IMG/VR virus record: IMGVR_UViG_3300023184_000083 | Location: 13,725-77,724 of that record | DNA length: 64,000 bases | Strand: one strand, 5' to 3' | Source of the DNA: a virus | In this document: positions 6,954 to 29,584 of the stretch, piece by piece | Position numbering within the stretch: position 1 is the stretch's first letter | How the letters are laid out: each line of letters starts with the position of its first letter | Program-made: the position numbers and the translations under genes | The notes under the pieces: generated by a model | The model's input: only the letters and a program-made list of their open reading frames with translations | The model's database searches: none | Told to the model about the DNA's origin: nothing

Positions 6954-7399
6954 AGTTTCACTATACCGTTCAATCGGTAATTAGAGCAATGTCTTAAAGA
7001 AATAACGTTACTAACAATTTAGTGTCACTAACCCCTTTGAAGGGGGTCCGGGGGAAACTTTACGAAATTCAATTTGAATTCCGCGCAGCACAAAAAGGAT
7101 TCCATTTTTCAGGAATGTTTTTTGTAGATGCTTGGCGCGCCATCTGTTGTGTCTCCGAAGTTACCATCAAAAGTCCCGAGACGCAAGTCAAGGAGAAAAA
7201 TATTTTTATTCCGTGTGGGGAACAGTACCCTGTGGATAACTACTTGTAGTGTAGTCTAGTCGGCAGCCGGGGCATTTCCTCCTTTCGTACCGGCTACGTT
7301 CCCGGGTGTGTAGCAGATGTAGAAGTAGGTGGCTCATCCGTCTCCGCCCGGGAACACTTTCGCATTCCTTTCCACCACCGTCGCTGCTTACGATAAATT

Positions 7400-7924
7400 T
7401 TACGCCGACGCCGGCGATTCAAAATCCTCCAGCGGTAGTAGGAACGTATCTGTTTCCCACAAAATTCCAACAGCCGCGTAACCGATGACGTCCATAAAGT
7501 TGTCAATCATGGATTCGTTCCAGGGGTTCTTGAGATTTGATGTCAAGTTCTCCAGGCGTGCAATCTTGTCGTGCATTCGGACGACGAGGCCGGTAGTCCC
7601 GAATCTCGCGATGTTCTCTGGACCATAGTCTGACTGCTTACGAATCAGTGTCTTGAGTAGCAGGTCGTCTTCCTGGAGGTAGTTTTCAAATTGGCAATCG
7701 GATTGCGTATGCCCCGCGTGCATCCCCAGGGCCCCCAGTTCAATCCAACATTTTTCACGATTTTCTTTAGACATGGCCGCCGGCCCTTGAGGCTGCATGA
7801 TTATGTCAATAAATTTATCTAAACATTCTCGCACGTCGTAGAGTTTTACTTCTTCAGCCATCTCTGCCGCGCGCCAATAAATCTTCTGCACCGCAAAGCG
7901 CGCTGCCTCGTTCCAAGTTTTCAT
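7400..7924 (-). CDS. DUF1599 / nucleotide-modification-associated domain 1 protein
   Basis: RKQSDYG...GLVVRMHDKIARLENL...ESMIDNFMDVIGYA. Confidence 0.75.
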   Translation of the reverse strand: MKTWNEAARFAVQKIYWRAAEMAEEVKLYDVRECLDKFIDIIMQPQGPAAMSKENREKCWIELGALGMHAGHTQSDCQFENYLQEDDLLLKTLIRKQSDYGPENIARFGTTGLVVRMHDKIARLENLTSNLKNPWNESMIDNFMDVIGYAAVGILWETDTFLLPLEDFESPASA

Positions 7925-8349
7925 AGCCATTTCTCCCAGTTAATCTTCGGTAGAGGGTTGCCCTCCAACATTTCCACAACAGTTTCCAGCATCCTGCCTA
8001 GAATCTTTTGCCAGATGTAATCTCTGTAGTCTTTTTCGTAGTTGTTTTCTAATTTTTCCATGATGGCTGTTACCAGAGAATCTGGGAACGCTGCGATTAT
8101 TTGTCCTTTTTCAGTTCCTGGGAAAAGGTTGGGGCAAACCGTCATGTCCAACGCGCTGTCTTTATAATGCATTCCCTGGATGACGACATCTGGTCCGGCA
8201 CCTACGAAGAGTAAGGAACCCATTTCGTCAGGAGTTATTTCTCTGATGGCCTTAGACGTGGCAGGGTATTTTTTTGAGAATTCGCGCAGCGCCTCAAGGG
8301 CCTGTTCCGCTGTTTCATATTCAGAAATTTCGTAGGGTTCGTCTGTCAT
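7921..8349 (-). CDS. hypothetical protein
   Basis: 142 aa; TTGACA-N18-TACGGT upstream. Confidence 0.6.
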   Translation of the reverse strand: MTDEPYEISEYETAEQALEALREFSKKYPATSKAIREITPDEMGSLLFVGAGPDVVIQGMHYKDSALDMTVCPNLFPGTEKGQIIAAFPDSLVTAIMEKLENNYEKDYRDYIWQKILGRMLETVVEMLEGNPLPKINWEKWL

Positions 8350-8470
8350 GATTGCTTTCCGCCACCGTAGCGGCTTGGGGAGTGTTTTGTCAAGTGCTGA
8401 AGAAAAAGATTTTTTAAAAAATCCTATTTCCTTCGCGCTCGTTGTATTTTGTTGTAATAAAGTTCACTCC

Positions 8471-8842
8471 ATGGATAACACTACACGTTTTGAACTTTAT
8501 ATCCGAGCCTTGGAACAATTCGCCGGACGTGAGGGTCATACCAGAGTCCCGGCCGTTCACGTTGAGAACGTTGACGGCACTGATGTGCATGTCGGGGCTT
8601 GGGTGGGTTACACTAGACAGCGTCGCAAGAAGGGATTCCTTCCCGCGGAACGAATCCAAAAACTTGAAAATTTGCGTGAATGGACGTGGGGCCCTCTGAA
8701 GCCAGGGCCGGCGACCAATAATAATAGAAATTCTGAGATTCTTGGGATGCGCAGCCAGGGGATGACGCTTCGTCAAATTGCAGATTCGTTTGACTTGAGC
8801 CGTCAGCGCATTCACCAGATTGTGAAGAAAACTAATGCCTGA
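8471..8842 (+). CDS. helicase-associated (HA) domain + sigma70-region-4-like HTH
   Basis: ALEQFAGREGHTRVP...VGAWV...R...L..ERIQKLE...W.W then GMTLRQIADSFDLSRQRIHQIV. Confidence 0.75.
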   Translation: MDNTTRFELYIRALEQFAGREGHTRVPAVHVENVDGTDVHVGAWVGYTRQRRKKGFLPAERIQKLENLREWTWGPLKPGPATNNNRNSEILGMRSQGMTLRQIADSFDLSRQRIHQIVKKTNA

Positions 8843-9301: not shown

Positions 9302-9559
9302 AAGTCTTCTCCTTTAGTAAGTGGTTTAAGTTTATCGCCGGCAATTAGTTTTGCCAACCTCTTCCGCCACCGTCGCACGTTGTAAACACTTACCACGTAG
9401 CGCAGCGGCGCTGTTGTTTTTTTCATTTTTTTTGATGACCCCTGGAGGTCTGGGGGAGAAAAGCCAGTGCCCCTTGGCCGTGAGCCGAAAGAACTCACAA
9501 CCAAAGGGCTGGCTACACACATGCTGGGGGGCAGTTCACGTGTGCGAACGTTTTTCACT

Positions 9560-11778: not shown

Positions 11779-11859
11779 GGTAGTAATCCCTTTCGGATGT
11801 GGTTGTTTATTACATGTACCAAGTTATCCGTTATTAAGAACAACGACAACCTTGGTTAG

Positions 11860-12357
11860 TTATTTTTTTTCTGCTTTTCTATCAGCCTTCTCGTCACGAA
11901 TTTCCCACAAGCCTTTTTTAACTTTGCGGAATGTCTGTGACTCGGAAACAAACTTAAGTGTCGTCTGATAAGAGAAGCCAGCAATTTCTGTCAGTTGTTC
12001 TGTAGTGAACTGTTCAAACAAGTGGTCTTTAGTCCACTCCAAGAAGGCGTCGTACTTATCTGCACGTTTCGGAATCGGGGTTATGACTACGCCATCTTCA
12101 AGGGTCTCGTCACAAAACTGAGGTACCAGTTCTTCAATGATGTCTGTAGGTATCCCATACGACCCAAGGAAGCGAGAAGCCTTGCCACGACCGTCCCATA
12201 CCTGTAAACAATAGAGGGCACGAACACGACTAGATATGGAGAACGTGACAGTGCGGGGCACGGAGAACACGTCTCCGTACTCTTGTTTTGCTTCGTCCCA
12301 CAAAGACTTATGTGTCTCTAGTATCTCTGTATCTGTAATCATTTTCTTTAATGCCAT
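11860..12357 (-). CDS. hypothetical protein, C-terminal HTH-like (leaderless)
   Basis: ATG at +1 of repeated early promoter. Confidence 0.65.
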   Translation of the reverse strand: MALKKMITDTEILETHKSLWDEAKQEYGDVFSVPRTVTFSISSRVRALYCLQVWDGRGKASRFLGSYGIPTDIIEELVPQFCDETLEDGVVITPIPKRADKYDAFLEWTKDHLFEQFTTEQLTEIAGFSYQTTLKFVSESQTFRKVKKGLWEIRDEKADRKAEKK

Positions 12358-12537
12358 ACCTTTAACCTATCCGTTATTAACCATAATGACAACCCGCAGT
12401 ATTAAATATTCGCATATTTTTTTACACTCTGGCAGCAAGTGAGGCATCATTCAACCCTTTATTAGGGCCGGCTGCAACCTGAGCCCCGAGATAATGTTAG
12501 AATTTTAAGACAATCTTTCACCAGAACGGGACTCGTC

Positions 12538-12792
12538 ATGAAAAAGAAAAGCCAACTTCACGCACCAGTAGAAGCAATCTCATATCTCTTGGAGCCTTCT
12601 CCGATTGTTGAAGGAGTTCAAATGGGAGCCCCGGCGGCACCGGCGGCAGAAGAGCCAAAGAAGAAGCCAAAGAAGGTTGAAGAACCAGTAGCCGAAGCAG
12701 TGGTAGAGCCAGTGGTTGAAGCAGCAGCAGAAGTTGTTGCAGAGCCAGTCGCAGAAGTAGTAGAAGCAGCAGCAGAACCCGCTGCTGAATAA
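12538..12792 (+). CDS. acidic low-complexity (E/A/V/P) protein
   Basis: Repetitive EPVAEAVVE; hairpin + T-run follows. Confidence 0.5.
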   Translation: MKKKSQLHAPVEAISYLLEPSPIVEGVQMGAPAAPAAEEPKKKPKKVEEPVAEAVVEPVVEAAAEVVAEPVAEVVEAAAEPAAE

Positions 12793-12875
12793 ATAAACGT
12801 AAAAAGGCAGGGTCTTCCGCCACCGTCGCCGCTTTCAATGAGCAGCAGACGGGGCCAAGGGCCCTGCTTTTTGTT

Positions 12876-13136
12876 TTAGTAAGTTACGTCGCGCTCGTCA
12901 GCGCATTTTAAACAACATGCGTATTTGACCGGTACATCTTGAGAGTCAATTGCATATTCCCAGATGGGCTCATCGTCTACAAACTCGTCTACGCACCAAG
13001 CGCAGTATCCGGAGTCCCGCCCCCAGACGATTTGAATCGGGGACGCCTCAGCACAGGAGGGACACTGTTCATCTTCGTTAACCCATCCAGTCTTCTTGCA
13101 AGTGAAGCAATCTTCCAGTGCGTTCATCTCAGGCAT
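12876..13136 (-). CDS. Cys-rich Zn-binding protein
   Basis: Four CxxC pairs; GAGGAA RBS. Confidence 0.55.
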   Translation of the reverse strand: MPEMNALEDCFTCKKTGWVNEDEQCPSCAEASPIQIVWGRDSGYCAWCVDEFVDDEPIWEYAIDSQDVPVKYACCLKCADERDVTY

Positions 13137-13407
13137 CGGCTTCCTCTGTGAATTCAACGACGATTTCGTCATGCATCCCAGCGAGAGCGTTACCGTCAAT
13201 GAACATGTCTTGGTCATTAGTGATTTCAAAGAAACCTTTGGTCCAGTAGCCGTTGTCGTTTAGGAAGTCGTACTTGTCGTTCCAAGTTAGGTCTACCCAG
13301 TTTTCAGGGAGCACCGATGTGTCGGGGACCGAGAAGTAATCCCATTTCAGGGGCATCTCGCCAATCATCTTGGGATAGCGAAGTTCTGTGCAGGTGCGGT
13401 AGTTCAT
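13129..13407 (-). CDS. hypothetical early protein (leaderless)
   Basis: ATG at +1 of repeated promoter. Confidence 0.65.
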   Translation of the reverse strand: MNYRTCTELRYPKMIGEMPLKWDYFSVPDTSVLPENWVDLTWNDKYDFLNDNGYWTKGFFEITNDQDMFIDGNALAGMHDEIVVEFTEEADA

Positions 13408-13416
13408 ACATTCAAC

Positions 13417-13659
13417 CTAACCGTTATTAGGGTCAATGACAACCTCTGAGTGGTCAATGATTGCATCAGCGAGCCAGTTGCAGATGTCACGGTCAGAGCC
13501 TTCCCATTCTTCAAACTCTTTTACGACGCGAGCCCAGCCTTCGTTGGTGAGTTCAAGTTCGTCGTTCCAGAATACTTCTGGTTTTTCCCAGAACAGAACC
13601 ATCAGTTCGTCGTCTGGGTTCATACCCTCAACGAGGTGGCGTAGTTGTGAGACTTTCAT
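13417..13659 (-). CDS. acidic hypothetical protein
   Basis: Coupled ORF; C-terminus encoded by promoter repeat. Confidence 0.6.
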   Translation of the reverse strand: MKVSQLRHLVEGMNPDDELMVLFWEKPEVFWNDELELTNEGWARVVKEFEEWEGSDRDICNWLADAIIDHSEVVIDPNNG

Positions 13660-13853
13660 TCAGCCTGCTCCCACGCCATGTAGTCGCCGTCCATGTCACG
13701 ACAGATGCCAGTGACCCAGAAAGGTTTAGGGTGTGGAGCCTCAGGGTCTTCCCCGATTGCTTCACGAACCTTAATGAGTGCTTTAGTCATGGCTTCACCA
13801 TCTGTGAGGGCGTCTACATCAACGCCAACTTGTACTTGTACACGGTAAGTCAT
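13656..13853 (-). CDS. hypothetical protein
   Basis: Coupled to neighbours. Confidence 0.55.
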   Translation of the reverse strand: MTYRVQVQVGVDVDALTDGEAMTKALIKVREAIGEDPEAPHPKPFWVTGICRDMDGDYMAWEQAE

Positions 13854-14110
13854 TACTGCTCCATAAATTCTAGTGATTCAACCAAGTCAATAAACCATTC
13901 CTTGTTTACGGAATAGACGTCACGAGACTCCTCAATAGCCTTTAGAAGACCTTTCGCTTCATCATCAGTGAAGTAGTAGAAAGTTTCTAGGTCTGATGGA
14001 GTGTCAAACTCCTCAGGTTGAAACGAGATGAAAACATCGTTGTAGCCGTCAGGTGAGTCTGTCCAAGTAACGGCACACTCAACCCCTTTATATTTATCTG
14101 AAATACTCAT
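13853..14110 (-). CDS. acidic hypothetical protein (leaderless)
   Basis: ATG at +1 of repeated promoter. Confidence 0.65.
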   Translation of the reverse strand: MSISDKYKGVECAVTWTDSPDGYNDVFISFQPEEFDTPSDLETFYYFTDDEAKGLLKAIEESRDVYSVNKEWFIDLVESLEFMEQ

Positions 14111-14119
14111 ACCTTCAAG

Positions 14120-14581
14120 TTATCCCTTATTACCCTTAATGACAACCTCAGTGAAGTAATAAAAAAGATTGCTTGTGAAGATGGTGCGATATCCGTTCCA
14201 TGCGTCGTCAGTCCCGATGCATAGTTCTCCGATTGTCTTCAACTCTTCGTCGGTGGCTTCGGTAGTAACCCACTTGAGCCAACCCATCAGACGTTCTTCT
14301 GTCGTGTCGTACTCAAGTTCTAGAAGAACCTCAGCCTCGTCGCGCAGAGCCCCGGGAGAATATGACACAGATGTAAAGCGTGTTACTTCTCCGTACAGAG
14401 TGTCTTCCATGATTTTGAGAACGCTCTTGCCTGTGCGAACTGCCATCTGAGATATTTCAGAGTCGCTCGCAACATCTAAAAAATGTGCGTCGTTTTCATC
14501 TAGTTCAGATAAATCTACGACATAGCAGTAATCCAGCGGGACTACCGTCCCAGACTGGGAGTCAATAATAACTTTCGTCAT
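14120..14581 (-). CDS. acidic hypothetical protein
   Basis: ATGA overlap with upstream gene; C-terminus encoded by promoter repeat. Confidence 0.6.
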   Translation of the reverse strand: MTKVIIDSQSGTVVPLDYCYVVDLSELDENDAHFLDVASDSEISQMAVRTGKSVLKIMEDTLYGEVTRFTSVSYSPGALRDEAEVLLELEYDTTEERLMGWLKWVTTEATDEELKTIGELCIGTDDAWNGYRTIFTSNLFYYFTEVVIKGNKG

Positions 14582-15195
14582 TTCGCCATCTCCTCTGCCC
14601 AAAACTTTAGAAGCAGTGCTTCCACCTTGTCTTGCTCTTGTTCGTTCCAGTTTTCGTGCTCTGCTTCTTGCTCATCGTAGTCAAATGGGTTTTCACACGG
14701 TTCGTACATCGCCTCAAAGACGATGGAGCCGTTACGAAAGACATGGTATCCAGCAAAGAAGCCAGCCTCTTCATCGTAAGAGAACTGAAAGGACAGTTCA
14801 GGAAACAACTCTGAGATTTTTAGCCATGCCTTATCGGCTGGTCCCCATGCAGTAGTGAAGTTTATGAGCGCAGTGCCATCGGCACGGTCAAGAAGTTCAG
14901 TGTCGCAGTCGCCCCACTTGGTGCCCCAAGTGTCGTACTCCCACTCGTACCAGTCCGAGTAACCGAACTTAGCGATGTTCTCTTCCTTTTGTTTTAGCCA
15001 TGTCTCGTGCTCAGGGTTATCTGAAGACATTGACCCTGAAAGGATTTTGAGTTCCTCAGGGCAAGGCAAAAGAGACGGGATGATGTTTAGTTTTTCATTA
15101 CCGTTTTCGTCTTTTACAGTAGAGGCAGTTAGGAACCTTTGTAGTTCCTGCTCGTCTCCAGTGATTGACGCTGATGTATGAACCCAGTTGGGCAT
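14578..15195 (-). CDS. YubB/DUF1281 ferredoxin-like domain protein
   Basis: MPNW...DWYEW....WGTKWG...F.TAW.P...FPEL.F...YDE. Confidence 0.75.
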   Translation of the reverse strand: MPNWVHTSASITGDEQELQRFLTASTVKDENGNEKLNIIPSLLPCPEELKILSGSMSSDNPEHETWLKQKEENIAKFGYSDWYEWEYDTWGTKWGDCDTELLDRADGTALINFTTAWGPADKAWLKISELFPELSFQFSYDEEAGFFAGYHVFRNGSIVFEAMYEPCENPFDYDEQEAEHENWNEQEQDKVEALLLKFWAEEMAK

Positions 15196-15270
15196 GATTA
15201 CCTTCTTTCGGTGATAGTAAATCCGATAAGTAAAACTCTATCCGTTATTAGGGATAGTGACAACCTTACT

Positions 15271-15591
15271 CTAAAGTTTTTGTTCACTCCAGTGAGTAGC
15301 AAATGTCTTTGCGTAGGTGTCGGCGATGTGTGCTGCCGGCAGTCCCGCGACTGGGTCGCTGTGAAGAGTTACATTCTTGAACTCTGTCCATCGCTCGCCA
15401 CTACCTGAAACAGGAACGACAAGGAAGTCCAAGTGTCCATAACGACGGCGTGTATCTACAATGCGCACATCAACGACGAGTCCCGTTTCTTCTACGGACG
15501 CCGTGAGACCTTTGTAAATCTCATAGTCAATTTTCCCGTCACTTGTAAGTGCGTAACGGCTTTTATCTGGTTTGGGTGTATCTACCAACAT
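15271..15591 (-). CDS. hypothetical protein (SH3-like beta fold)
   Basis: V.VRIVD.R.RYG..D.LV.PV.GSGE.W; own promoter. Confidence 0.6.
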   Translation of the reverse strand: MLVDTPKPDKSRYALTSDGKIDYEIYKGLTASVEETGLVVDVRIVDTRRRYGHLDFLVVPVSGSGERWTEFKNVTLHSDPVAGLPAAHIADTYAKTFATHWSEQKL

Positions 15592-15687
15592 GGTGAATAA
15601 CTTTCTTTGTAGGGGGTTTGTTTTCAGCGTAGCGGTTATTATCCATAATCACAACGCCAAACTTGGTCACACTCAGAGCGACGGGGC

Positions 15688-15945
15688 CTACTCGGCTGGG
15701 AAACACCCTGCTATGAAATAGTGTCCGTTTTCGTCCTTGCTAATGCGCCACTCTAAATGTGAGTAGCGATAGCGAAGGCGGTGGACAACTGAACTAGCAC
15801 TCACGTAAGTCTTGTATTCTCCGTCTTTGAAACGGTGGGATACCGCCCACGTCCCTTTCGGTTGTTCTGAAAGTTCGTTTACTAGGTTGCGGATACGATA
15901 TCCGGGACTAGCGACTGCTGGGGTGGGGACGATTTCTAATGCCAT
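15688..15945 (-). CDS. hypothetical protein
   Basis: 85-aa ORF in operon. Confidence 0.55.
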   Translation of the reverse strand: MALEIVPTPAVASPGYRIRNLVNELSEQPKGTWAVSHRFKDGEYKTYVSASSVVHRLRYRYSHLEWRISKDENGHYFIAGCFPAE

Positions 15946-15949
15946 GTTG

Positions 15950-16417
15950 TTACCAAGAACTTTGATATGTAAAGTCGTAGTCGGTTGGGACGTTCACTAG
16001 TGCCTCATTTATCATGAGCACCGTATCTTCTAGGTCACCGAAGTAGAACTCGTCATACTGTGTGCTTCCAAAAAAGAAACCACTAGCGGTTGGTAGTAAC
16101 TCATCAGCGAGCCCGTGGTCGGCGAGAACCTTCTGACAGATGTCACGAAGTGCAATTAGATGGTCACGAGACACATAAGCCTCACGACAATCGTCTACGC
16201 CGTCTTGGCAGTTATCTACAAACCATTGGTGAACTTGGTTTGACTTGCGCCATTGTCCGACCTTGATTTGTATTTGTGCGCTAGGCATCTCTTTGGTCAT
16301 GAACTTCTGTGCGCCAGTTGCTTCCACAACTTTTTCAAACAGTTCTGTTCGCTCTTTTCCGAGCCAATCGCCAGAACTTGTGTAGCACTTGGCATAGAGG
16401 TATTGGTCTAATCCCAT
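15950..16417 (-). CDS. conserved phage protein (MGLD..WRK.N..H.WF..LPT..GFFFG..Y.SSW family)
   Basis: Recognisable widespread phage family of unknown function; promoter + AAGGAG RBS. Confidence 0.75.
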   Translation of the reverse strand: MGLDQYLYAKCYTSSGDWLGKERTELFEKVVEATGAQKFMTKEMPSAQIQIKVGQWRKSNQVHQWFVDNCQDGVDDCREAYVSRDHLIALRDICQKVLADHGLADELLPTASGFFFGSTQYDEFYFGDLEDTVLMINEALVNVPTDYDFTYQSSW

Positions 16418-17079: not shown

Positions 17080-17091
17080 GGAAGGAACCCA

Positions 17092-18923: not shown

Positions 18924-18924
18924 T

Positions 18925-20586: not shown

Positions 20587-20829
20587 ATGATTATTCAACC
20601 AAGTCTCACGGAGGCTTTTCTTCGGGGCTCCCGTCTCGGGAAACAAGATAGGTCTTTGGACATTTCTAACTACGAACCACTCAACAGTTCATGGGAAGGT
20701 AAGACCGCCTATCAAATTATTGACGAACTGCTTAGTGGTGGTGAAGTAGAACAGTTTTACCATGAGTTATGCGACACTTTCTGTGCTGGTTACTTTGAGG
20801 GAAACAGGAAGCCCCGTGTCTCTCTTTAG
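20587..20829 (+). CDS. hypothetical protein
   Basis: GAGGA RBS. Confidence 0.55.
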   Translation: MIIQPSLTEAFLRGSRLGKQDRSLDISNYEPLNSSWEGKTAYQIIDELLSGGEVEQFYHELCDTFCAGYFEGNRKPRVSL

Positions 20830-21013
20830 TTGCGAAATCTGCGGGAACACAGTAGACCCCAAAGGCAAAAGCACGGTTCAACTAGTGAACGCTTGGATAC
20901 GGGGCGGCTCACGTGCGCTGTTCTCTATTGAAGATAGAACTTATCGCTATCGCCACGAAGTGTGTTGCGCTAGACCTGACGATAACGGACAACAGGAGTC
21001 ACTGTTCGGATGA
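20816..21013 (+). CDS. Zn-finger protein
   Basis: CEICG...RHEVC. Confidence 0.5.
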   Translation: MSLFSCEICGNTVDPKGKSTVQLVNAWIRGGSRALFSIEDRTYRYRHEVCCARPDDNGQQESLFG

Positions 21014-21190
21014 GTAAAATAATTACCGCTTGGGCGGCTCTAATATCCGCACCTTTAATGTTCCTGCTTCCGCCGGGGCTCCAGATGTACGCCGTTCTGG
21101 TTTTTGCTTTTTCGTTGCTGAAATTGTTTGTAGTCAAATAATCTTTTGCTCAAGGTTGTCATTGTTACTAATAATGGATAACTTGAAGGT

Positions 21191-21421
21191 ATGACATATT
21201 TTGAAACATTCCAAGGCTTGCTTGATAGCGAGTATTACTCTATTGGCGTGACGGGCGCAGAAGCCCTCGTGAACATGCTTGACGACCTGAACCAAGGTCG
21301 TCTCGTGGAGTTCTTCTTAGAACAAGAAGTCACCGAAGCCGAGTTCCTGATGACCGTGAACCGTCTCGCTGTTAAGTGGGCTTCCGAAAACGTACTTAAC
21401 GTAGTCGTAGGGGTGAAGTGA
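21191..21421 (+). CDS. acidic hypothetical protein (leaderless)
   Basis: ATG at +1 of promoter. Confidence 0.65.
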   Translation: MTYFETFQGLLDSEYYSIGVTGAEALVNMLDDLNQGRLVEFFLEQEVTEAEFLMTVNRLAVKWASENVLNVVVGVK

Positions 21422-21609
21422 TGGGACAAGCCCCGGCTATTGACAAGCAATGTTTCAAGCACCTGATGCTGATGTTGTGGAACGCCTACCTGATGCTACT
21501 GCTACCCTCGGGGCTGCTGTTCGTCGTGCCGATGGCGTTTAGCGCATACCACGCATACCACGCACTAAAACTTCTTCTGAAGGTTGGCATTACGCCTAAT
21601 AACAGATAG
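21418..21609 (+). CDS. small membrane protein
   Basis: Hydrophobic; C-terminus encoded by next promoter repeat. Confidence 0.5.
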   Translation: MMGQAPAIDKQCFKHLMLMLWNAYLMLLLPSGLLFVVPMAFSAYHAYHALKLLLKVGITPNNR

Positions 21610-21644
21610 AGTGTAACTATCAACTACTACCGAGAGGAAATCTC

Positions 21645-22064
21645 ATGACCCCTATCCAATACGCAACAGAATTACTAACTAAATCAGGTGACACTTGGGA
21701 AATCCCTACGCCACTTTTGTACGGAGTTACAGACGCAGGTGAGTTCCAACTTCTTTCTTCTGACATTGCCGACATTTATGAAGCCATTGACGAAGTCACA
21801 ATCCCTACCTACATGGTTGCGTTCGGCGTAGTCACGACTGGCTGGGCTGCGCCACTCAACGCAGATGGCACAATGGAAGGCGCACCTTCTAAGCACGCTC
21901 AACGCCGTCGTGTGAAGTTGGTATCGGTCATAAACGACAACGGTGCTGGCTCGGCTATGTCTTTCGCAGACGAACCCGAAGATGTAATCACAGATGAAGG
22001 TAGTGCTACTGGCTCACTCGCAGAGGCAATCACCGAAGCGTGGGAAAACAAGGCAACAGCCTAA
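21645..22064 (+). CDS. hypothetical protein, paralog of 17092-17502
   Basis: Shared motifs; promoter + GAGG RBS. Confidence 0.65.
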   Translation: MTPIQYATELLTKSGDTWEIPTPLLYGVTDAGEFQLLSSDIADIYEAIDEVTIPTYMVAFGVVTTGWAAPLNADGTMEGAPSKHAQRRRVKLVSVINDNGAGSAMSFADEPEDVITDEGSATGSLAEAITEAWENKATA

Positions 22065-22224
22065 GTGTTCGCTACGAGGGGTGGGGATACCTGCCCCTCA
22101 CAGCACATTGGTGGCCCCGTGCATTTGCTATCCGCCACCGTCGCTACTTGAGAAAAGCGCACACCCAAGCCCCCGGGGCTCACGCGTCGCATTTTGACTT
22201 TGTTATGTGTTTATGTCTGTCTCT

Positions 22225-22257
22225 TTTTCCACAACCTGTGGATAATTCTGTGGATAA
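22225..22257. promoter_or_regulatory. three DnaA boxes
   Basis: TTTTCCACA 22225, TGTGGATAA 22237 and 22249 (12-bp period). Confidence 0.7.
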
Positions 22258-22310
22258 GTTTTCTTGTTGGCGAGGTTGGCATTATGCCTAATAACGGATA
22301 ACTTGAAGGT

Positions 22311-22580
22311 ATGAAGTTCACAGACATCACCACCCCATCAGGCATAGTAACCATTGACCAGACAGACGGTTACATGACCTCTACTCCAAACTCCGAGGCT
22401 GTCACTCGTTGGTCTTTCTTTCCTAAATATGATTATCTCCATGTGACTTGGGGGCAGACAAAGTACATCTATTCGGGTGTGCCGTTCTCTGTTATCGCTC
22501 GTCTCTTGGCAACAGATAGCGTTGGTCGCTTCCTTAACACGGAAGTTAAGCCGAACTACGAAGTAACAAAGGTGGACTAA
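22311..22580 (+). CDS. KTSC-domain protein (leaderless)
   Basis: S.AV.......L.V.......Y.Y.GVP......L....SVGRF.N..VK..Y. Confidence 0.7.
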   Translation: MKFTDITTPSGIVTIDQTDGYMTSTPNSEAVTRWSFFPKYDYLHVTWGQTKYIYSGVPFSVIARLLATDSVGRFLNTEVKPNYEVTKVD

Positions 22581-22662
22581 TGAAAACACTGCTCGCAATT
22601 ATCCTTAGCCTGCCTCTCGGGGCTGTAGTCTTCATGGCTGTCGTTCTTGCAGGGGGTGACAA

Positions 22663-23043
22663 ATGACGCCTGCCGAGTGTCGCTCTCGTTTGTTTGGCTA
22701 TGTCCTAGCGAACCATAGGTACGGAGACTTCCACCCATCTCGTGTGTTTGTAGAGTTAGCCCTCATTGCTGGAGAGAACGCCTTTGACGACTCTGACCTC
22801 ATCATGGAGTTCGTTGACGGGGCTCTCGCCGGCTATAACCCCAACACTGTTGTCGTAGACCCACCCTCTCTCATGGCTGGCTTTGACGCACTTCACCAAG
22901 ACGCTTGGCTTGCTGGTCTAGCATGGGGCGAGAAGAAGGACTCCGAACAACACGAGTGGGATAAGTTGCCCACCTACGATGAGTTCCGTGAATGGTTAAA
23001 CTCTCCGTTTGACGAGGAAGAAGAAGAACTTGAAATGCTGTGA
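22663..23043 (+). CDS. acidic hypothetical protein
   Basis: 126-aa ORF; GGGGG RBS. Confidence 0.55.
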   Translation: MTPAECRSRLFGYVLANHRYGDFHPSRVFVELALIAGENAFDDSDLIMEFVDGALAGYNPNTVVVDPPSLMAGFDALHQDAWLAGLAWGEKKDSEQHEWDKLPTYDEFREWLNSPFDEEEEELEML

Positions 23044-23446
23044 TAACTGCGGGGTTGAAGCCCCGGACTCCCAACAACAGGGAGGCTATATTGACTACGG
23101 CTGGTCGTTGAACTGGCTTGCACTCGGTCACTACGGTGGTTTTACGGACTGTGTTCCCGAACGAGACTACGAAGTAGATAGTCCTCGTTACCTCGCTCAT
23201 CTCTGTCACGACTGCTGTATTAAACTCCTGAACGTGCTGCCGGGACTCGCAAAGTTGATTTTCCCACAAGAAGGTGGGGGTCACCCGAACATCAACGAAC
23301 ACGATGCAGACGATGGAACCTTGACTCCACCCTGCTGTCAGTGGGCGTGGACGTGGAAACGTAGCCCCGCTGGCGCACCGAACGCTGGTCAGTACGAGAC
23401 ATACTTTGCTACGGCTGATGGTGGCTGGAAAAAAATTAACGACTAA
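23030..23446 (+). CDS. Cys-rich hypothetical protein
   Basis: CDNCG...LCHDC; GAGGA upstream. Confidence 0.55.
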   Translation: MKCCDNCGVEAPDSQQQGGYIDYGWSLNWLALGHYGGFTDCVPERDYEVDSPRYLAHLCHDCCIKLLNVLPGLAKLIFPQEGGGHPNINEHDADDGTLTPPCCQWAWTWKRSPAGAPNAGQYETYFATADGGWKKIND

Positions 23447-23484
23447 GGGTTGTCATTACCCTTAATAACGGATAGTCTGAAGGT

Positions 23485-23706
23485 ATGAGTGAATACGAAA
23501 TACCAGAAATGCCCGACTACTGCCATTGTAGTAGCAACGGAGAGTGCGCCTACTGCCTCTCCCAAGACGAACTAGAACTAAAGGTTTCCTTCCATGTTCA
23601 GAACGCAGGAAAAGAAGTGCTGTTCACAGGGTCGCTTGCGCAGTGTAGAGCCTTCATGGAGAAGAACGAAATTGCCCGTAGAGAGTTGCTGTGGGTTAAA
23701 CAGTAA
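23485..23706 (+). CDS. hypothetical protein (leaderless)
   Basis: ATG at +1 of promoter; terminator follows. Confidence 0.6.
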   Translation: MSEYEIPEMPDYCHCSSNGECAYCLSQDELELKVSFHVQNAGKEVLFTGSLAQCRAFMEKNEIARRELLWVKQ

Positions 23707-23718
23707 CGTCACAAGAAT

Positions 23719-23746
23719 TACCCCTGCCTTCGGGTGGGGGTTTTTT
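23719..23746 (+). terminator. intrinsic terminator
   Basis: ACCCCTGCC-TTCG-GGTGGGGGT + T6. Confidence 0.75.
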
Positions 23747-23757
23747 ATTGCCCGAAC

Positions 23758-24021
23758 TCAGTCCGCCGCGGGACTGCCGGAAGAACGACGTATCTTCATT
23801 ACTTGACTGTAGACAGACATCATGGCATCGTTGAGTTCTTTGTTGTTGTCAGAAGCAACGAACTTCATGTCGGCTCTTGTCCAACACGTGACGTTCCAAC
23901 GCCCCGCTTGCCGGAGTATTTCAAAGTCAAGGTTCATTAGGTCAAACCACTTCGTAAACTGGGCGATGTCGTTCCCTGATGTGGCGAGTTTCTTTTCTTC
24001 TGTTCCCCAAGATGATGGCAT
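23758..24021 (-). CDS. hypothetical protein
   Basis: Convergent ORF; start uncertain. Confidence 0.45.
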   Translation of the reverse strand: MPSSWGTEEKKLATSGNDIAQFTKWFDLMNLDFEILRQAGRWNVTCWTRADMKFVASDNNKELNDAMMSVYSQVMKIRRSSGSPAAD

Positions 24022-24116
24022 GCTTTTACTGTAGTGCATCGGGACCCCTGGCCGGCCGCACAAACAAACCAAACATGCAGGTTGTGATAAGCCCTAATAA
24101 GGGATAGAGTGTAAGT

Positions 24117-24324
24117 ATCGGTAAAGGACACCGAGTGGAAACCAAAGACTGAGTAATCTCCTAAGGCAACTCGGCGATTGGGAGTGCCACAAATATGCAG
24201 AGAAGCCCTACCTGCTGGATTGTTTCACGACTAATAACCTCGTTCTTCTCTCAGAGCGTCAATGGTGAATCACAGAGAACTAGAACCCCATCACAGTCTG
24301 GCGATTGTGTTGGGGTTCTTTTTT
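24117..24324 (+). ncRNA. candidate structured small RNA (~208 nt)
   Basis: Full early promoter (-35 at 24082, -10 at 24105) with no ATG at +1; several stems; ends in AGAACCCCA..TGGGGTTCT + T6 terminator. Confidence 0.55.
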
Positions 24325-24536
24325 GTCCCCTACCGGCCGCAGCCCCGTCGTTGTCTTCTTGGGTCTAGTTTTTCATAGCCTTTCCGCCACCGTCACTGCT
24401 TCAGGAAACAACAACACTCCGCTGCGGCGGGGCTAGGGGCCCCAGACTGAGAGTCAGGATTTGGGTGGCAGGAAAGAAGATTTATTTCTTTCATTTTGAC
24501 GTTGTAATAACGACTAATAATGGATAGATTGAAGAT

Positions 24537-24851
24537 ATGAACATTTCACTTGACAACGAAAACCTAAAGATAGATGGTCGTGTGGTTGCAAAAATAACCT
24601 CAAAGGCTTCATTTATCCTTCTTCGTGACACACTCCTAAAAACACTCCCACCAACCGAGGCTGTTTATTTGGCTCTCGCAATGATGGGAGAGTCTCGCAC
24701 GACAGACATTGCTGACTTTACTGGACAGGATAAGTCAAACTGCCTTCGTCGCTTGGCTGAGTTGGAAGAAGCGGGGCGCATTGTGCTCACAGATAACGCT
24801 TACAACAACGGACTTCGTGGTCGCCCAACCCGTATGTGGGCAGTCGCCTAG
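24537..24851 (+). CDS. winged-helix DNA-binding protein (leaderless)
   Basis: RTTDIADFTGQDKSNCLRRLAELEEAG...GRP...W. Confidence 0.7.
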   Translation: MNISLDNENLKIDGRVVAKITSKASFILLRDTLLKTLPPTEAVYLALAMMGESRTTDIADFTGQDKSNCLRRLAELEEAGRIVLTDNAYNNGLRGRPTRMWAVA

Positions 24852-25029
24852 AGTCGTTCTCCCTCTTGTGTTGAGGTATCATCTTGGTACAACGACACGA
24901 GAGGGTAGTTATGACTAAGAAAGACGACGACGGGGCTGACAAGAAGCAAGAAAAGCCCAAGAAGCAGGAAAGACCACGCTTCGTCCAACGAGTTTGGGGA
25001 AGTAATAAATGCTGTGGGAGACCACCCGT

Positions 25030-25275
25030 ATGATAGTCCCCATCTTTGTTCTGAACCGCATCCCCGAGACAACCTCTTTGTGGGTGTGTCAGAACTGCGA
25101 AGACTACTGGTGGGAGTCCCGAGATTGCGAAGTATGCAACGCAACGGGTGAACTGGTTGCTTCTCCAAAACAAACTGTCGGTTGCAACATGGGCGATATG
25201 TTCGGGGCTGATTTCTTGTTCCACAAGCAAATGAACAGACACATCAAGAAAAACATACTGTGGGCACCTTGGTAA
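25030..25275 (+). CDS. Zn-ribbon protein
   Basis: CQNC...CEVCNATG. Confidence 0.5.
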   Translation: MIVPIFVLNRIPETTSLWVCQNCEDYWWESRDCEVCNATGELVASPKQTVGCNMGDMFGADFLFHKQMNRHIKKNILWAPW

Positions 25276-25331
25276 AAAATCTTTTTTTGTCAGAGGTTGT
25301 CATTGTTCTTTATTAAGGATAGATTGAAGAT

Positions 25332-25616
25332 ATGAAAATACTTACAGACGACGATATGGAAGTTGTAGCCAACGCTAACGATGGCTTCGGTTCCTTATTC
25401 ATCACACTCGCTGGTCTAATGGATAGACTCGGCATTAAGACACTAAAGTCAGCCCTCACCTATTTGCCTGAAGAAATTGCAGGCGATGTAGAGATGGATA
25501 AAGCACTAAAGTGGGTTCGCTGGGCTATGGGTCAAAAAGGCGATTGCCCAACTCCTGAAATTGGAACGGCTTGTCATCACTTTCTTGCTGTAGGATTGCT
25601 TGAGGAAACAGAATAA
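25332..25616 (+). CDS. hypothetical protein (leaderless)
   Basis: ATG at +1 of promoter. Confidence 0.65.
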   Translation: MKILTDDDMEVVANANDGFGSLFITLAGLMDRLGIKTLKSALTYLPEEIAGDVEMDKALKWVRWAMGQKGDCPTPEIGTACHHFLAVGLLEETE

Positions 25617-25915
25617 TGGTCGGCAAAAACGCACCCAACTTTGACCCACAGCCAATGATGGATAGGCTCACACAGCCGATGTCATTTGACGAGTGGATTG
25701 TCATCGGCATGAACAGCGGTTGGTGTAGCCCACCGTTGTGTGAAACCCACGACGGGGTCCCGCAAACTAAAGCCGAAGAAGAGCAGTGGGAAGAAGGTGG
25801 CGACCCATGTATTCATGTGATTCGCCTGTTTGACTCACCCGAAGATAAGGCTGAGGCAGAAGAGGGTCACTCACCCTCGCAGTGGCGCAACCATTGGAAG
25901 CAGTCAGATGTCTGA
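25616..25915 (+). CDS. conserved actinophage-type protein (GWC.PP.C.THDG.P..E..G.DPC.H..RL)
   Basis: Motif pattern; coupled. Confidence 0.65.
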   Translation: MVGKNAPNFDPQPMMDRLTQPMSFDEWIVIGMNSGWCSPPLCETHDGVPQTKAEEEQWEEGGDPCIHVIRLFDSPEDKAEAEEGHSPSQWRNHWKQSDV

Positions 25916-26096
25916 GCACTCATACTTTCGTGCAGACTTAGAGAACGACATGAAGTTCCTCGTCGGTGCTGGGCTCATAGAAGTCGCCGGCATTGACGAA
26001 GACGGGGACTGGCTGTACCAGCCGACTGCTAAAGGAAAAGCAATGTCACTAGAAATGATGCAACAAATGATTGAAGCCTCTGGGGAAGAAGAATGA
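25908..26096 (+). CDS. small wHTH-wing-like protein
   Basis: GLIEVAGIDEDG.WLY..T.KG. Confidence 0.55.
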   Translation: MSEHSYFRADLENDMKFLVGAGLIEVAGIDEDGDWLYQPTAKGKAMSLEMMQQMIEASGEEE

Positions 26097-26326
26097 CCGT
26101 GGCCCCGTTGTTCAAAGAATTCGCATCAGCCGAGGAGTTTGAGGAAGCGGTTAAGTCTGCTTACGGACACCCATCATGTACATTGCGTTACGGACAGTTG
26201 TACTTCAACATGCTTACAAAGTGTCGCCCTGAAATCGCTAAAGCGTTACAAGGCGGGGCACTAGACCCGTTCTACAAAGAGGGCGTATCAGACGCAACAC
26301 GCAGTGTCGTAGAGTCTCGTTGGTAA
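26093..26326 (+). CDS. conserved small phage protein (LRYGQ..FN.L..DPFY)
   Basis: Motif; ATGA overlap. Confidence 0.6.
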   Translation: MTVAPLFKEFASAEEFEEAVKSAYGHPSCTLRYGQLYFNMLTKCRPEIAKALQGGALDPFYKEGVSDATRSVVESRW

Positions 26327-26363
26327 GGTTGCCATTGTTGCTAATAAGGGTTACACTGAAGTC

Positions 26364-26540
26364 ATGAACATACCAGCACCATTTAAAGGTACAGCAGAAC
26401 AAGCGAAAGCAAACTTTGCAACTCATCGTTTTAGTAACGACGACGACTTTAGATGTGGTCAGTGCGACTGCAAACCATGGCACATAACAGCCAGTTATCC
26501 GTGCGGTGAGGAACCACCTCGCATTTTCGTAAACGAATAA
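26364..26540 (+). CDS. small Cys protein (58 aa, leaderless)
   Basis: Hand-translated ...RCGQCDCKPW...YPCG; ATG at +1; terminator 26557-26593. Confidence 0.6.
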   Translation: MNIPAPFKGTAEQAKANFATHRFSNDDDFRCGQCDCKPWHITASYPCGEEPPRIFVNE

Positions 26541-26787
26541 ACCATCTCCACTCAGAGCGAAAGCCGGGACTCTTCGGGGTCCTGGCTTTTTCGCATTATG
26601 GGTTTGCTTTCCGCCACCGTCACTACTTGAGTAAACATTTGTTCCGGCTGCTGCCGGTCCCGCGCGCCATCTTCAGATAATGAGTCAAACGGGGGGCAAA
26701 AAAGGCAAATAAAAAGTTTCTATTTAAGGTTGTGTTTACCCTTAATAACGGTTAGAGTGTTCTTATGAGTGGAGAGGGGGTGAAAAA

Positions 26788-26928
26788 ATGATGACAACCA
26801 CGACTTGCTGGTTTTGCGGCGTACTGTGCCCAATCCAAGGTTCTGCGGAACTGCCCGAGGGCGGGGCCGAGCCTGCGGGTACTTGCCCTGCCTGCGAAGC
26901 GGAGCAGGCGCTAGAAGCACTACTCTAG
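26788..26928 (+). CDS. small Zn-ribbon protein (46 aa)
   Basis: CWFCG...CPAC; GGGGGTG RBS. Confidence 0.5.
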   Translation: MMTTTTCWFCGVLCPIQGSAELPEGGAEPAGTCPACEAEQALEALL

Positions 26929-26982
26929 CCTTCCAACCCCCCAAAGCCCTCCGACAGGACAGGCTAGGGGTACGGGCGGGGC

Positions 26983-27213
26983 TCAGTTCTCCCAGGGGGT
27001 GCCATTCCAGTTGCCTAGCCGCTTAGCCATTGAGCCGAGCGTGTTCGCTCCGCCTTCCCATTTGATTTCCTTAGCCCCGGTTTCCATCAACTTAAGTTGA
27101 CGCCTGATGTCTTCAAGCATTTGTTCAAGGAGACGCAAGCGCCCCTCCAGTCGCTTGATGCGCTGTTCGTGCAGTTCGTCAGGAAGTTCAGGGTTGTCGT
27201 TCTGTTCGCTCAT
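26983..27213 (-). CDS. coiled-coil hypothetical protein
   Basis: Heptad pattern; GAGGA RBS. Confidence 0.5.
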   Translation of the reverse strand: MSEQNDNPELPDELHEQRIKRLEGRLRLLEQMLEDIRRQLKLMETGAKEIKWEGGANTLGSMAKRLGNWNGTPWEN

Positions 27214-27329
27214 TTCCTCAGACTACACGCAGCGGGACTCAACGTCGGGGGACACGCCCCCATAAAACCCCTCAAAACTTTCTTGCTCATAATGTTGTAA
27301 TTGTTACTAATAAAGGATAGAGTGTTCTT

Positions 27330-27458
27330 ATGAGTGGTGAGGAGGTGAATATGGGAATTGATTGCGAAGAAACTTGCAAGTGTGGTATTACTTACCAAAC
27401 GTGGCTAGTTTACGACGTTGAGTGCATTGACGATAAAGTGCACGTGTGGGAAGACTAA
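27330..27458 (+). CDS. small Cys/His peptide (42 aa; alternative start 27351)
   Basis: Promoter upstream; terminator 27479-27510. Confidence 0.5.
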   Translation: MSGEEVNMGIDCEETCKCGITYQTWLVYDVECIDDKVHVWED

Positions 27459-27562
27459 ATAGTCACCCACAACAAAATAACCCGTCTGTGCCCTCCGCAG
27501 ACGGGTTTTTGTTTGCCCTGATTCACGTCGTATCTGGGGCCCCGCGATAGACTGAGAGCATC

Positions 27563-29479
27563 ATGATTCATCTCTATCTGTCGGACGACCACCTTGTGTT
27601 TGACTTCCCGTATGACGCAGAGCAGGTTGCAGAGATAAAGCGCATCAAAGGGGCTAAATGGGACAAGGTTGCCCGAGTTTGGCGCTTGCCCATCACGGCG
27701 TTGGAGGAGAGTCGGGGCTTCGCCGGCCGCCACAACTTCGTCATCTCCTCAGAAGTCATGCTTTTTACGCTGCCCAAGCACAACAACTCCGAAACCAACG
27801 GCGTATATATCAAGGGCGATTGGGTATATCTTGCTTTTGACTACGACCCAGTACGTGTTCGTTCAGTAAAACAAATTGCTGGCATCACTTGGCATGCGAA
27901 GACCAAGGCGTGGAGAGCCCCGATGGCGAGCATCTCCGAGGTAGTGGGTTGGGCAACCACCTTCAAGCAGCCTATTGAAAGCAATGTTACTGACATGCTC
28001 AACCAAATAGAGAGTTCTCTTACAGAACTAAAGGACGCATCACGAATGGTTGATGCTGAACTTGAAGTGGCGGGACTACCGCTGCTGCCGTACCAGAGGG
28101 CTGGAGTTGCATACGCATCTAACGCACGGCGCACATTCATTGCCGATGAAATGGGATTGGGGAAAACTCTACAGGCGATTGCGACACTGGAGTATGTTTA
28201 TGATTCCTACCCAGCAGTTGTCGTGTGTCCTGCAACGCTCGTTCTTAACTGGAAAGCCGAATACAACAGGTGGCTTCCTTCTCGCAAGGTCGCAGTAGTA
28301 ACTGACCGCAAGGAATTTCCGACAGAATATGATGTAGTTGTTATAAGTTATTCTAACCTTAATCACTGGGAAAAGCAACTTCTAAATCACCAATCTTATG
28401 TTTTTGATGAAAGTCATTACTGCAAGACCCCAACAGCACAGCGAACGAAGTCAGCCGTGAAGATTGCACGGACAGCCCCGGCGGCGGGAATTGTCTTGTG
28501 TTTGACGGGGACACCAGTAACCAACCGACCAGCAGAATATGCAAGCCAACTTAGAATCATTGGTCAGTTAGACAAGTTCGGTGGGGAGTGGGGTTTCTAC
28601 AGGAGATACTGCGCTGCGTTCAAAGACAAATGGGGACAATGGCATCTTGAGGGTCACTCTCATCTTGATGAACTCAACGAACGACTGCGTTCTACTTGTT
28701 ACATCAGGCGTACAAAAGAGCAGGTTCTTACTGATTTGCCACCCGTGATGCACGACCCCATCGTCGTTGACGGGACTGCTGCCGGCCTACGTGAGTACAA
28801 AAAGGCAGAAGATGACATTGTTGAATACTTGGTACAGCGCGCTAAAGAGATTGCGTTGGAACTTGGTAAGTCTCCTAACTCGGCAGCGGTCGTAGCGAGA
28901 ATCAAAGCCGAATCAAATCAACACCTCGTTCGTCTCTCAGTTTTGCGTCGCTTGTCAGCAAAAGCGAAGATGCCAGCAATTATTGACTGGGTAGAGTCCC
29001 GTGTGGCGGAGGGCCGCAAAGTCGTAATCGCCGCTCACCACAGAGATGTAGTTGATGAGTTAGCCAAGAAGTTCGGCAACTTGCGAATCCAAGGCGGCAT
29101 GGACATTGAGGAGATTGAGAAGCAGAAGAACCTGTTCATGACTTTGCCGGCCGCAGAGGCCCCGTGCATCGTGCTGAGCATCCAAGCAGCCAAGACTGGT
29201 CACAACCTTCAGGTGGCTCAGGATGTGCTGTTCGTGGAACTCCCATGGACGCCTGCTGATGTAGACCAGACTTACAGTAGATGTCATAGATTGGGGCAGA
29301 AGTCGTCAGTCACGGCTACATACATGTTATGTGCTGGAACGATTGATGAAGAAATCTACTCGCTGATTGAACGTAAGCGGGGCGTAGTAAACCAAGCAGT
29401 TGATGGTGTTGCATACACAGAGTCAGATGCTGTGTCTGACTTGGTTATGAGTAGATTGTTTAAGGAAATTAACGATTAA
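27563..29479 (+). CDS. SNF2-family helicase with N-terminal HARP-like repeats
   Basis: ADEMGLGKT, DESH, LTGTP, Q..SRCHRLGQ; two N-terminal F.YD....IK.I.G..W....K.W repeats. Confidence 0.9.
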   Translation: MIHLYLSDDHLVFDFPYDAEQVAEIKRIKGAKWDKVARVWRLPITALEESRGFAGRHNFVISSEVMLFTLPKHNNSETNGVYIKGDWVYLAFDYDPVRVRSVKQIAGITWHAKTKAWRAPMASISEVVGWATTFKQPIESNVTDMLNQIESSLTELKDASRMVDAELEVAGLPLLPYQRAGVAYASNARRTFIADEMGLGKTLQAIATLEYVYDSYPAVVVCPATLVLNWKAEYNRWLPSRKVAVVTDRKEFPTEYDVVVISYSNLNHWEKQLLNHQSYVFDESHYCKTPTAQRTKSAVKIARTAPAAGIVLCLTGTPVTNRPAEYASQLRIIGQLDKFGGEWGFYRRYCAAFKDKWGQWHLEGHSHLDELNERLRSTCYIRRTKEQVLTDLPPVMHDPIVVDGTAAGLREYKKAEDDIVEYLVQRAKEIALELGKSPNSAAVVARIKAESNQHLVRLSVLRRLSAKAKMPAIIDWVESRVAEGRKVVIAAHHRDVVDELAKKFGNLRIQGGMDIEEIEKQKNLFMTLPAAEAPCIVLSIQAAKTGHNLQVAQDVLFVELPWTPADVDQTYSRCHRLGQKSSVTATYMLCAGTIDEEIYSLIERKRGVVNQAVDGVAYTESDAVSDLVMSRLFKEIND

Positions 29480-29584
29480 GGAATTCCTTTCCGCCACCGT
29501 TGCCACTTCAGGAAAAACTATTCTGGGGTTCTCCTCCGGGGCTTTTGCTTTTAATATTTAATTTAATGCTTTTATACCCTAAAG

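Follow-up and report, generated by a model that had tools for sequence, protein, structure and literature searches.

A strand-polar repeat in the early-gene block of uncultured freshwater actinophages and its candidate reader

The operators and stoperators of the cluster A actinophages, read by L5 gp71 and by the Bxb1 and TipsytheTRex repressors, are short asymmetric words with a GGTGG/CCACC core, present in many repeats (PMC9283540, PMC6550527). The cluster A mycobacteriophage repressors are two-domain monomers that recognise 13-bp asymmetric operators and stoperators (PMC9283540), and the stoperators follow transcription and are non-functional when inverted (PMC9283540, PMC6550527). Here we describe a repeated intergenic element of similar appearance in a 64-kb stretch of viral DNA (positions 13,725 to 77,724 of the 77.7-kb IMG/VR phage contig IMGVR_UViG_3300023184_000083, which is estimated to be half complete). 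This stretch, called the window below and used for all coordinates unless stated otherwise, is part of a ~155 kb uncultured freshwater actinophage encoding WhiB.

The element shares several properties with the cluster A sites. It is likewise a short, asymmetric word with this core in many copies, it occurs both in early promoter regions (19% of copies) and free-standing between genes in one orientation throughout, and its plausible reader, so far a candidate, is a small monomeric protein combining a helix-turn-helix (HTH) with a second DNA-binding domain. The differences concern number, orientation and setting. There are 7–12 copies in one early block of an apparently lytic phage of ~155 kb, compared with more than 20 sites in L5; the orientation is kept against the genes, whereas stoperators follow transcription and fail when inverted; and the candidate reader carries a helicase-associated (HA) domain instead of a stoperator domain, with no immunity function apparent. 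A temperate setting is also missing, in that five complete relatives gave no match to the tyrosine integrase family PF00589 with control genomes positive, while serine integrases and ParAB were not searched. Because a tyrosine integrase is lacking from these five genomes, the phages of the family look lytic, and the purpose of the element would therefore not be prophage silencing. The element would resemble cluster A operators and stoperators in the way it works, yet it falls outside that family, because the orientation rule and the lysogeny context fail. A first-pass annotation of the window, made by a model from the sequence alone, had likened the reverse strand of the element to L5 stoperators. 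This likeness stands for the GGTGG core, the many asymmetric copies and the combination of promoter and intergenic sites; it breaks down, as the annotation itself had pointed out, for the orientation with transcription.

Three further systems invite comparison. Promoter-early stem-loop (PeSL) cassettes of T4-type phages consist of an early promoter and a stem-loop, oriented with transcription. Like the element, they form a repeated regulatory module bordering small variable early genes, with borders that are mosaic breakpoints; however, only a fifth of the element copies are promoter-like, the GC-rich hairpin lies 100–155 bp away and the orientation ignores gene direction. Ter/Tus and other polar barriers resemble the element in having an asymmetric site of 14–23 bp, a handful of copies and a direction-dependent logic, but here all sites point one way and lie at promoters and unit borders, and no Tus- or RTP-like protein was identified. 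Chi and KOPS share its strand polarity and a G-rich complement containing GGTGG. They are, however, 8-mers distributed across whole replicons with a skew that switches at ori and dif, whereas the element is a 17-mer found in 10% of the genome.

Distribution and strand polarity of the element

A search of both strands of the window with the 20-mer, allowing up to three mismatches, returned ten copies, every one of them on the + strand, with a chance expectation of 0.03 (Table 1). These are exactly the ten copies listed by the first-pass annotation, and the weak copy that it placed within a coding sequence at 6875 is also real. Our own gene calls put all ten full copies between genes, as had been proposed. 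The annotation had seen no full copy beyond 29.5 kb, and none was found in the other 34 kb of the window or on the part of the contig upstream of it (13.7 kb). Minus-strand copies in similar numbers, which would have contradicted a one-sided array, are absent from the window.

Leftward genes occupy ~5.3–16.4 kb of the region and rightward genes 16.7–31.7 kb. The transcription flip at ~16.5 kb, also noted in the first pass, was evident from the gene calls and independently from a second repeat, promoter motif A (29 copies against 0.5 expected, between 11825 and 36001). The strand of motif A follows the gene, being − at 11.8–16.5 kb and + at 16.6–29.7 kb. Motif A therefore served as an internal control: it switches strand at 16.5 kb and the element does not, as five of the window copies lie within the rightward block with their strand unchanged.

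Table 1. Element copies, promoter motif A and associated genes in the window.
Feature	Position	Strand	Context
WhiB-family gene	5019..5354	+	left border of early-gene block
Weak element copy TCCGCCACCGC	6873..6892	+	inside leftward coding sequence
Element copy TTCCACCACCGTCGCTGCTT	7370..7389	+	intergenic
Element copy	8357..8376	+	between divergent genes; 95 nt upstream of HA-HTH gene
HA-HTH protein gene (123 aa), candidate element reader	8471..8842	+	true start 8471
Element copy	9362..9381	+	can pair with GC-rich sequence downstream, then T-run; z −2.4 on + strand
Element copy	12815..12834	+	23 nt past stop of small + gene
Promoter motif A, eight leftward copies	11825..16479	−	TTGTCA-N17-TAgnnT, ~6 nt, ATG
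Element copy	16499..16518	+	divergence point; 16 bp upstream of −35 of leftward motif A (16455–16479)
Promoter motif A, eighteen rightward copies	16631..29659	+	TTGTCA-N17-TAgnnT, ~6 nt, ATG
Element copy	18813..18832	+	rightward block; 4 nt past open reading frame stop; CGGGGCT 18859; rightward promoter A 18954
Element copy	22130..22149	+	rightward block; CGGGGCT 22174; promoter A 22276
Element copy	24382..24401	+	rightward block; CGGGGCT 24428; promoter A 24502
Element copy	26609..26628	+	directly after + strand terminator-like hairpin; reverse strand GTGACG-17-CATAAT
Element copy	29489..29508	+	10 nt past helicase stop codon; then terminator-like hairpin 29521–29541 with T-run

Viral contigs were initially scanned for the 14-mer, and the first relatives found in this way each carried several co-oriented copies. 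Two sets of 80 loci were then fetched, one via an ATPase and one via a different gene; the sets overlap and the loci are related. The ATPase set contained 578 copies on the strand corresponding to the + strand of the window and 2 on the opposite strand, and the other set 506 and 3, with no locus lacking the element. The word is common to about 300 contigs of widespread, uncultured, large lake actinophages, with a strand fidelity above 99.5%. A fidelity this high argues that something reads the word, in one direction.

A logo built from 369 distinct instances gave sTCT-TCC-R-CCACCGTCA-a, with the asymmetric consensus sTCTTCCRCCACCGTCAa. Eleven contiguous positions are near-invariant, also across proteomes that are 40–70% identical, and conservation falls sharply beyond ~17 nt. 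The sequence that follows differs by lineage: CTTGAGAAAC in the window, and ATTAGAAAAC, GTTGAAAGAC or N5-CTAACG in others. A/T and A/G variants of the element are mixed within genomes around an invariant core. The ten copies of the window fall within the range of 7–12 per relative. Copy number and positions vary between lineages, and orientation is constant. In the five complete relatives (156–170 kb), all 7–9 copies lie within a single 15–17 kb block of small early genes, about 10% of the genome. This confinement to one block excludes a replicon-wide Chi- or KOPS-like word, and with it the chromosome-wide signal considered in the first-pass annotation.

In most relatives the block is leftward throughout, with 771 kb of leftward and 111 kb of rightward coding sequence overall. 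In leftward contexts the complement of the element lies 0–135 nt upstream of the next leftward start and 100–300 nt past the previous stop. Six lineages contain a rightward sub-block (the window with L137, L142/143, L145/146, L214/215 and G002), the genes of which are homologous to leftward genes of other relatives. Copies inside these sub-blocks remain on the + strand in all of the lineages. There, the element lies 4–15 nt past the stop of the left gene in many cases, and ~66–70 nt past it in two window cases, with the next rightward start 150–230 nt beyond. In every context, the element is thus close to the left-hand unit and a long spacer begins on its right. A single large inversion is ruled out as the origin of this arrangement, because the internal copies would have been inverted too. 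The claim that the strand is kept whatever the local gene direction therefore holds for the window and at least five other lineages. Independence from transcription is visible in the rightward sub-blocks; in most relatives, where the block is all leftward, the same arrangement amounts to simple co-orientation.

Promoter overlap and the candidate reader

Read leftward, the element is TTGACG-GTGGYGGAAGA. A TAnnnT hexamer lies 16–18 bp from the TTGACG in 68 of 360 distinct copies (19%), ~10 times background; at 17 bp it is found in 12% of copies compared with a background of 1.1%, and TGn is present in 9%. In conserved promoter-like cases, the start codon follows 6–8 nt after the −10. By its sequence, this subset is made up of good leftward sigma-A-type promoters for leaderless genes. 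The full sigma-A pattern of a −35-like hexamer, a 16–18 bp spacer and TAnnnT is found in these 68 copies, not in the majority. Eighty per cent of all copies are without a −10 at a usable distance, and among those without TTG in the −35 only 5% have one.

Other registers occur as well. Some lineages have a local −10 (TAGATAAGT) 17 to 25 bp away. The window copies have a degenerate −35, GYGACG, and a −10-like hexamer at 17 bp accompanies just one of them, that at 26609; in conservation they nevertheless equal the copies found elsewhere. The reverse strand at 8357 reads TTGACA-N18-TACGGT and leads into the ATG at 8349, so that the −10 lies within the element, an overlap that the first-pass annotation had correctly recognised. 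The best-conserved positions are the spacer and the ACG, not the TT of the −35, and an AT-rich stretch lies directly upstream of the element in the leftward sense. Since the same word stands in varied registers in or near promoters, its invariant part is not required for promoter function as such and is operator-like. In the window, promoter work is done by motif A, which implies leaderless mRNAs and lies 117–143 bp to the right of an element copy in six cases.

A gene for a 123-aa HA-HTH protein was found in 81 of 83 loci, always on the element strand, which makes it rightward in the otherwise leftward block of nearly all relatives. An element copy lies 7–85 nt past its stop in most loci, and another 24–114 nt upstream in many. 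Pfam searches identified an HA domain (6.5e-13) and Sigma70_r4 (25.9 bits; cut-off 24.1), and the recognition-helix residues LSRQRxHQI are invariant. The AlphaFold (AF2) model (predicted local distance difference test score, pLDDT, 87) has an N-terminal HA domain, a flexible linker (residues 67–83) and a three-helix HTH of LuxR/sigma-4/resolvase type. The protein matched no stoperator repressor, either by sequence or by fold. The two-domain monomeric precedent (PMC9283540) makes it a plausible reader of a 17-bp asymmetric word with a −35-like end, and from its sequence, predicted fold and gene position it is the likeliest candidate for the reader of the element.

We tentatively favour the reading that the element is an asymmetric regulator-binding site, with the HA-HTH protein as the candidate regulator. 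It would be an operator at leftward promoters, a barrier or insulator resembling a stoperator at the remaining borders and, secondarily, homology for exchange. On this reading, a double-stranded asymmetric site of ~17 bp in the early-gene block of ~155 kb lytic freshwater actinophages would be recognised by a protein. The 123-aa protein may bind it as a monomer, its HTH contacting the TTGAC(G) end and its HA domain the GTGGYGGAAGA part. Some junctions have the site within the −35 and spacer of a leftward promoter of the host type (sigma-A), where it would serve as an operator. At others it would stand alone at the left edge of a long intergenic spacer, where the bound protein could form a roadblock or insulator, as at a stoperator. 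The same word, in the same direction at each unit border, may also supply homology for swapping units between relatives, and such swapping would keep the direction fixed.

Several observations weigh against this reading. The link between protein and site is co-occurrence within one family, where everything co-occurs, and since the core is invariant, co-variation of protein and site cannot be read. Copies in rightward units keep what would be the wrong orientation for a stoperator, so that a barrier would need a target different from the local sense transcript, or these copies do a different job. The spacing between element and −10 varies (17–25 bp and more), an unusual feature for an operator that acts by simple steric hindrance, and the lytic appearance of the phages removes the purpose that cluster A sites have in prophage silencing. 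Any conserved island in divergent spacers would be expected to show part of the breakpoint enrichment described below, and counts from related loci are not independent.

A one-way array is a related and more doubtful possibility. Here, the monomeric HA-HTH protein, bound in a fixed orientation, would stop or pass RNA polymerase, the replisome or an injected helicase according to the direction of travel, whatever the local genes do. Such an array, if true, would combine features of stoperators and Ter sites in a lytic phage and would at the same time mark out the gene units that can be exchanged. If the HA-HTH protein is the reader, this would be the first function of the HA domain as a sequence-specific DNA reader and the second independent case in which asymmetric operators are recognised by a two-domain monomer. 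It would also offer a way to study the insulation and shuffling of early units in phages with leaderless promoter-per-gene cassettes. If the polarity instead reflects replication or DNA entry, the element would be a polar signal of a kind new to phage genomes.

Alternative explanations

The element could be only the −35 and spacer of one leftward early promoter class, used by host RNA polymerase (sigma-A), perhaps together with the phage WhiB or another factor, with the other copies being decayed or hitch-hiking remnants that keep their direction by descent. This we regard as unlikely, although it accounts for the 19% of copies with TTGACG at the right distance from (TGn)TAnnnT and leaderless starts, for the AT-rich stretch lying where an UP element would be, for the position of most copies close upstream of a leftward gene start and for the leftward block of most relatives. 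Conservation, however, peaks at the spacer and the ACG, and most copies are without a usable −10. The ten window copies are near-identical over 25–30 nt though they are not promoter-like. Remnants would decay, whereas copy number and positions here vary by lineage and orientation never does, and in several independent lineages copies stand directly past the stop codons of rightward genes. The first-pass annotation had named a simple leftward promoter as the finding that would overturn its proposal. For about a fifth of the copies this comes close to being the case, since they supply the −35 and spacer to good leftward promoters; no such −10 accompanies the others.

Alignments between relatives bear on a second alternative. 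Of 114 intergenic ends of high-identity alignments, 22 fell within −15 to +30 of a copy (4.8% expected), mostly at its left edge, an enrichment of ~4-fold. The high-scoring segment pair (HSP) between the window and its closest relative stops exactly at the copy at 7370–7389. In run X6, the 3′ end of the helicase is joined at copy 24382 to the unit right of that copy in a strain of 90–95% identity. The element thus appears to be one of the joints for unit exchange; gene-content and homology breakpoints among relatives, which the first-pass annotation had proposed to examine, are enriched at it, with small numbers and related loci. It is nevertheless improbable that the element is primarily recombinational, that is, a portable joint through which early-gene units are gained, lost or reordered by homologous or site-specific recombination that requires direct-repeat orientation. 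The breakpoints and the exact joints would suit this, as would units between copies that carry genes either way while the copies stay co-oriented. Yet 17 bp is short for efficient homologous recombination, the five complete genomes have no tyrosine recombinase, other variant joints in the same runs and strains lie at motif A copies, some enrichment is expected for any conserved island, and 11 near-invariant positions across proteomes of 40–70% identity point to a reader rather than to mere homology.

Strains in runs X6 and X7 also lack the segments 18943–19161, 20054–23727 and 13402–13655. Motif A copies bound two of these three deletions, indicating gain and loss of individual promoter-gene cassettes within natural populations.

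Equally improbable, in our view, is a genome-polar signal for a machine that moves one way along the DNA. This might be a Ter-like fork barrier, a site for loading or orienting a translocase (possibly injected polyvalent helicase proteins), an entry signal, or a strand-specific nick as in T5, phiKMV and tf. An orientation fixed to the genome and not to the genes in six lineages is what such a signal would produce; all copies lie in a block that is likely expressed first, and the proteins of relatives include giant capsid-targeted polyvalent ones that contain UvrD-type helicase domains. Restriction to 10% of the genome, however, is unlike Chi or KOPS, the element is long and close to unit borders and promoters, and no Tus-like or nickase candidate was identified.

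The flanks of the element were analysed on the + strand. The first-pass annotation had described a bipartite repeat in which the heptamer CGGGGCT follows four of the copies. All four positions are real (the three in Table 1 and 29537), and four within a 5-bp window is above chance by a rough estimate. The heptamer is, however, generally over-represented, with 39 copies in the window against 4.1 expected, a 9-fold excess found on both strands and mostly at 12–31 kb (12482–31239), which weakens the bipartite link; as a partner of the element it is lineage-specific and was not seen family-wide. The copies at 12815, 9362 and 29489 are parts of terminator-like hairpins. The hairpin at 12815, in which the element is the 5′ arm, is strong and has a T-run (−36 kcal/mol, z −4.6; window 12808–12872). 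Among relatives, a GC-rich hairpin peak lies 100–155 nt to the right of the element. A purine-rich, lineage-specific 'block 2' is found downstream, at a spacing that varies by lineage. Across the family, pairing between core and downstream flank showed no excess (−8.8 kcal/mol, compared with −8.3 in shuffled sequence), and no intrinsic terminator at a fixed offset and no + strand −10 were found at the element.

A signal at the RNA level or for rightward transcription, acting either as promoter for short rightward RNAs or as 5′ arm in terminators for sense or antisense rightward transcripts, is accordingly very improbable, since the hairpins and T-runs of the three window copies, the copies close behind stop codons of rightward genes and block 2 are offset by the missing family-wide complementarity, the lack of a positional terminator signal and of a + strand −10, the inconsistent spacing of block 2, and a search for T7-type RNA polymerase (PF00940) that found no match in five genomes, where the control was also silent.

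Other candidates were tried and rejected. A T7-like promoter, suggested by CATAGGAAGA in the relative G002, was dropped, as the spacing between core and purine block varies by lineage and no single-subunit RNA polymerase was detected (weak evidence, given the silent control); the giant proteins of a complete relative also carry no Pfam RNA polymerase domain. Extracytoplasmic-function (ECF), sigma-54 and PafBC (RecA-NDp) promoters would need a conserved partner at the required distance, and there is none. A hairpin of the core with downstream CGGGGC-type sequence is present in some window copies and family-wide is not above shuffled controls. The likeness to the 16S tail is a mirror image and not a complement, and the distance to the start codon is variable, which argues against a Shine-Dalgarno, anti-Shine-Dalgarno or 16S mimic. 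A G-quadruplex on the G-rich strand lacks the fourth GG run in most lineages, and the likeness to a DnaA box is broken by the A/G position.

Source phage and further features of the locus

The nearest capsids, 48% identical, are those of Gordonia and Brevibacterium phages. Together with WhiB and the leaderless promoters, they indicate an actinobacterial host. The DNA runs containing this phage are lake and freshwater metagenomes. No close cultured relative was found by megablast of 23 kb, tblastn of a 497-aa protein or tblastn of the HA-HTH protein against cultured phages. Besides WhiB, the contig encodes an HK97-type capsid, a class II ribonucleotide reductase, DnaB-like and SF2 helicases, a CobS-like ATPase, and thymidylate-synthase-like and nucleotide-modification proteins.

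Several minor sequence features accompany the repeats. Motif A, GGTTGTCA-N17 with a conserved CTAATAAnGGA in its spacer, is restricted to the lineage of the window (L137, L142/143), and its spacer suggests a site for a second regulator. Between the leftward and rightward blocks, the divergent control region contains a perfect, operator-like inverted repeat, TTGTGA-TT-TCACAA, at 16540–16553. A single perfect GTTTCACGTGAAAC palindrome at 18926–18939, just upstream of a motif A promoter, resembles the core of a ParB parS site; it may be due to chance, as 34% of shuffles give one match at ≤2 mismatches. CGGGGCT frequently makes up one half of a GC-rich palindrome or hairpin (AGCCCCnGGGGCT), and the relative G004 has GAGCCCCG...CGGGGCTC hairpins in the same spacers. 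A small + strand gene of 84 aa within the leftward block (12538–12792) is made up of tandem 12/24-nt repeats (GAAGCAGCAGCAGAAG-like), and in four lineages an element copy directly follows this gene.

Giant proteins are encoded in the window (39677–44527 and 59305–62529) and in G004 (79459–92211, 110339–118276 and 120118–130227 of that genome). The window proteins, of 1616 and 1074 aa, had no confident Pfam match. A 3369-aa protein of G004 fuses a prohead protease S78 to ArdC-N, MPTase-PolyVal and UvrD-type helicases and resembles a capsid-delivered polyvalent protein; a further giant protein of 4250 aa contains an RNase T exonuclease domain. Finally, a nucleotide-modification-associated DUF1599 domain at 7400–7924, scoring under the Pfam cut-off, a thymidylate-synthase-like protein at 32873–33637 and a glycosyltransferase at contig positions 6164–7225 (L136) together hint at hypermodified DNA.

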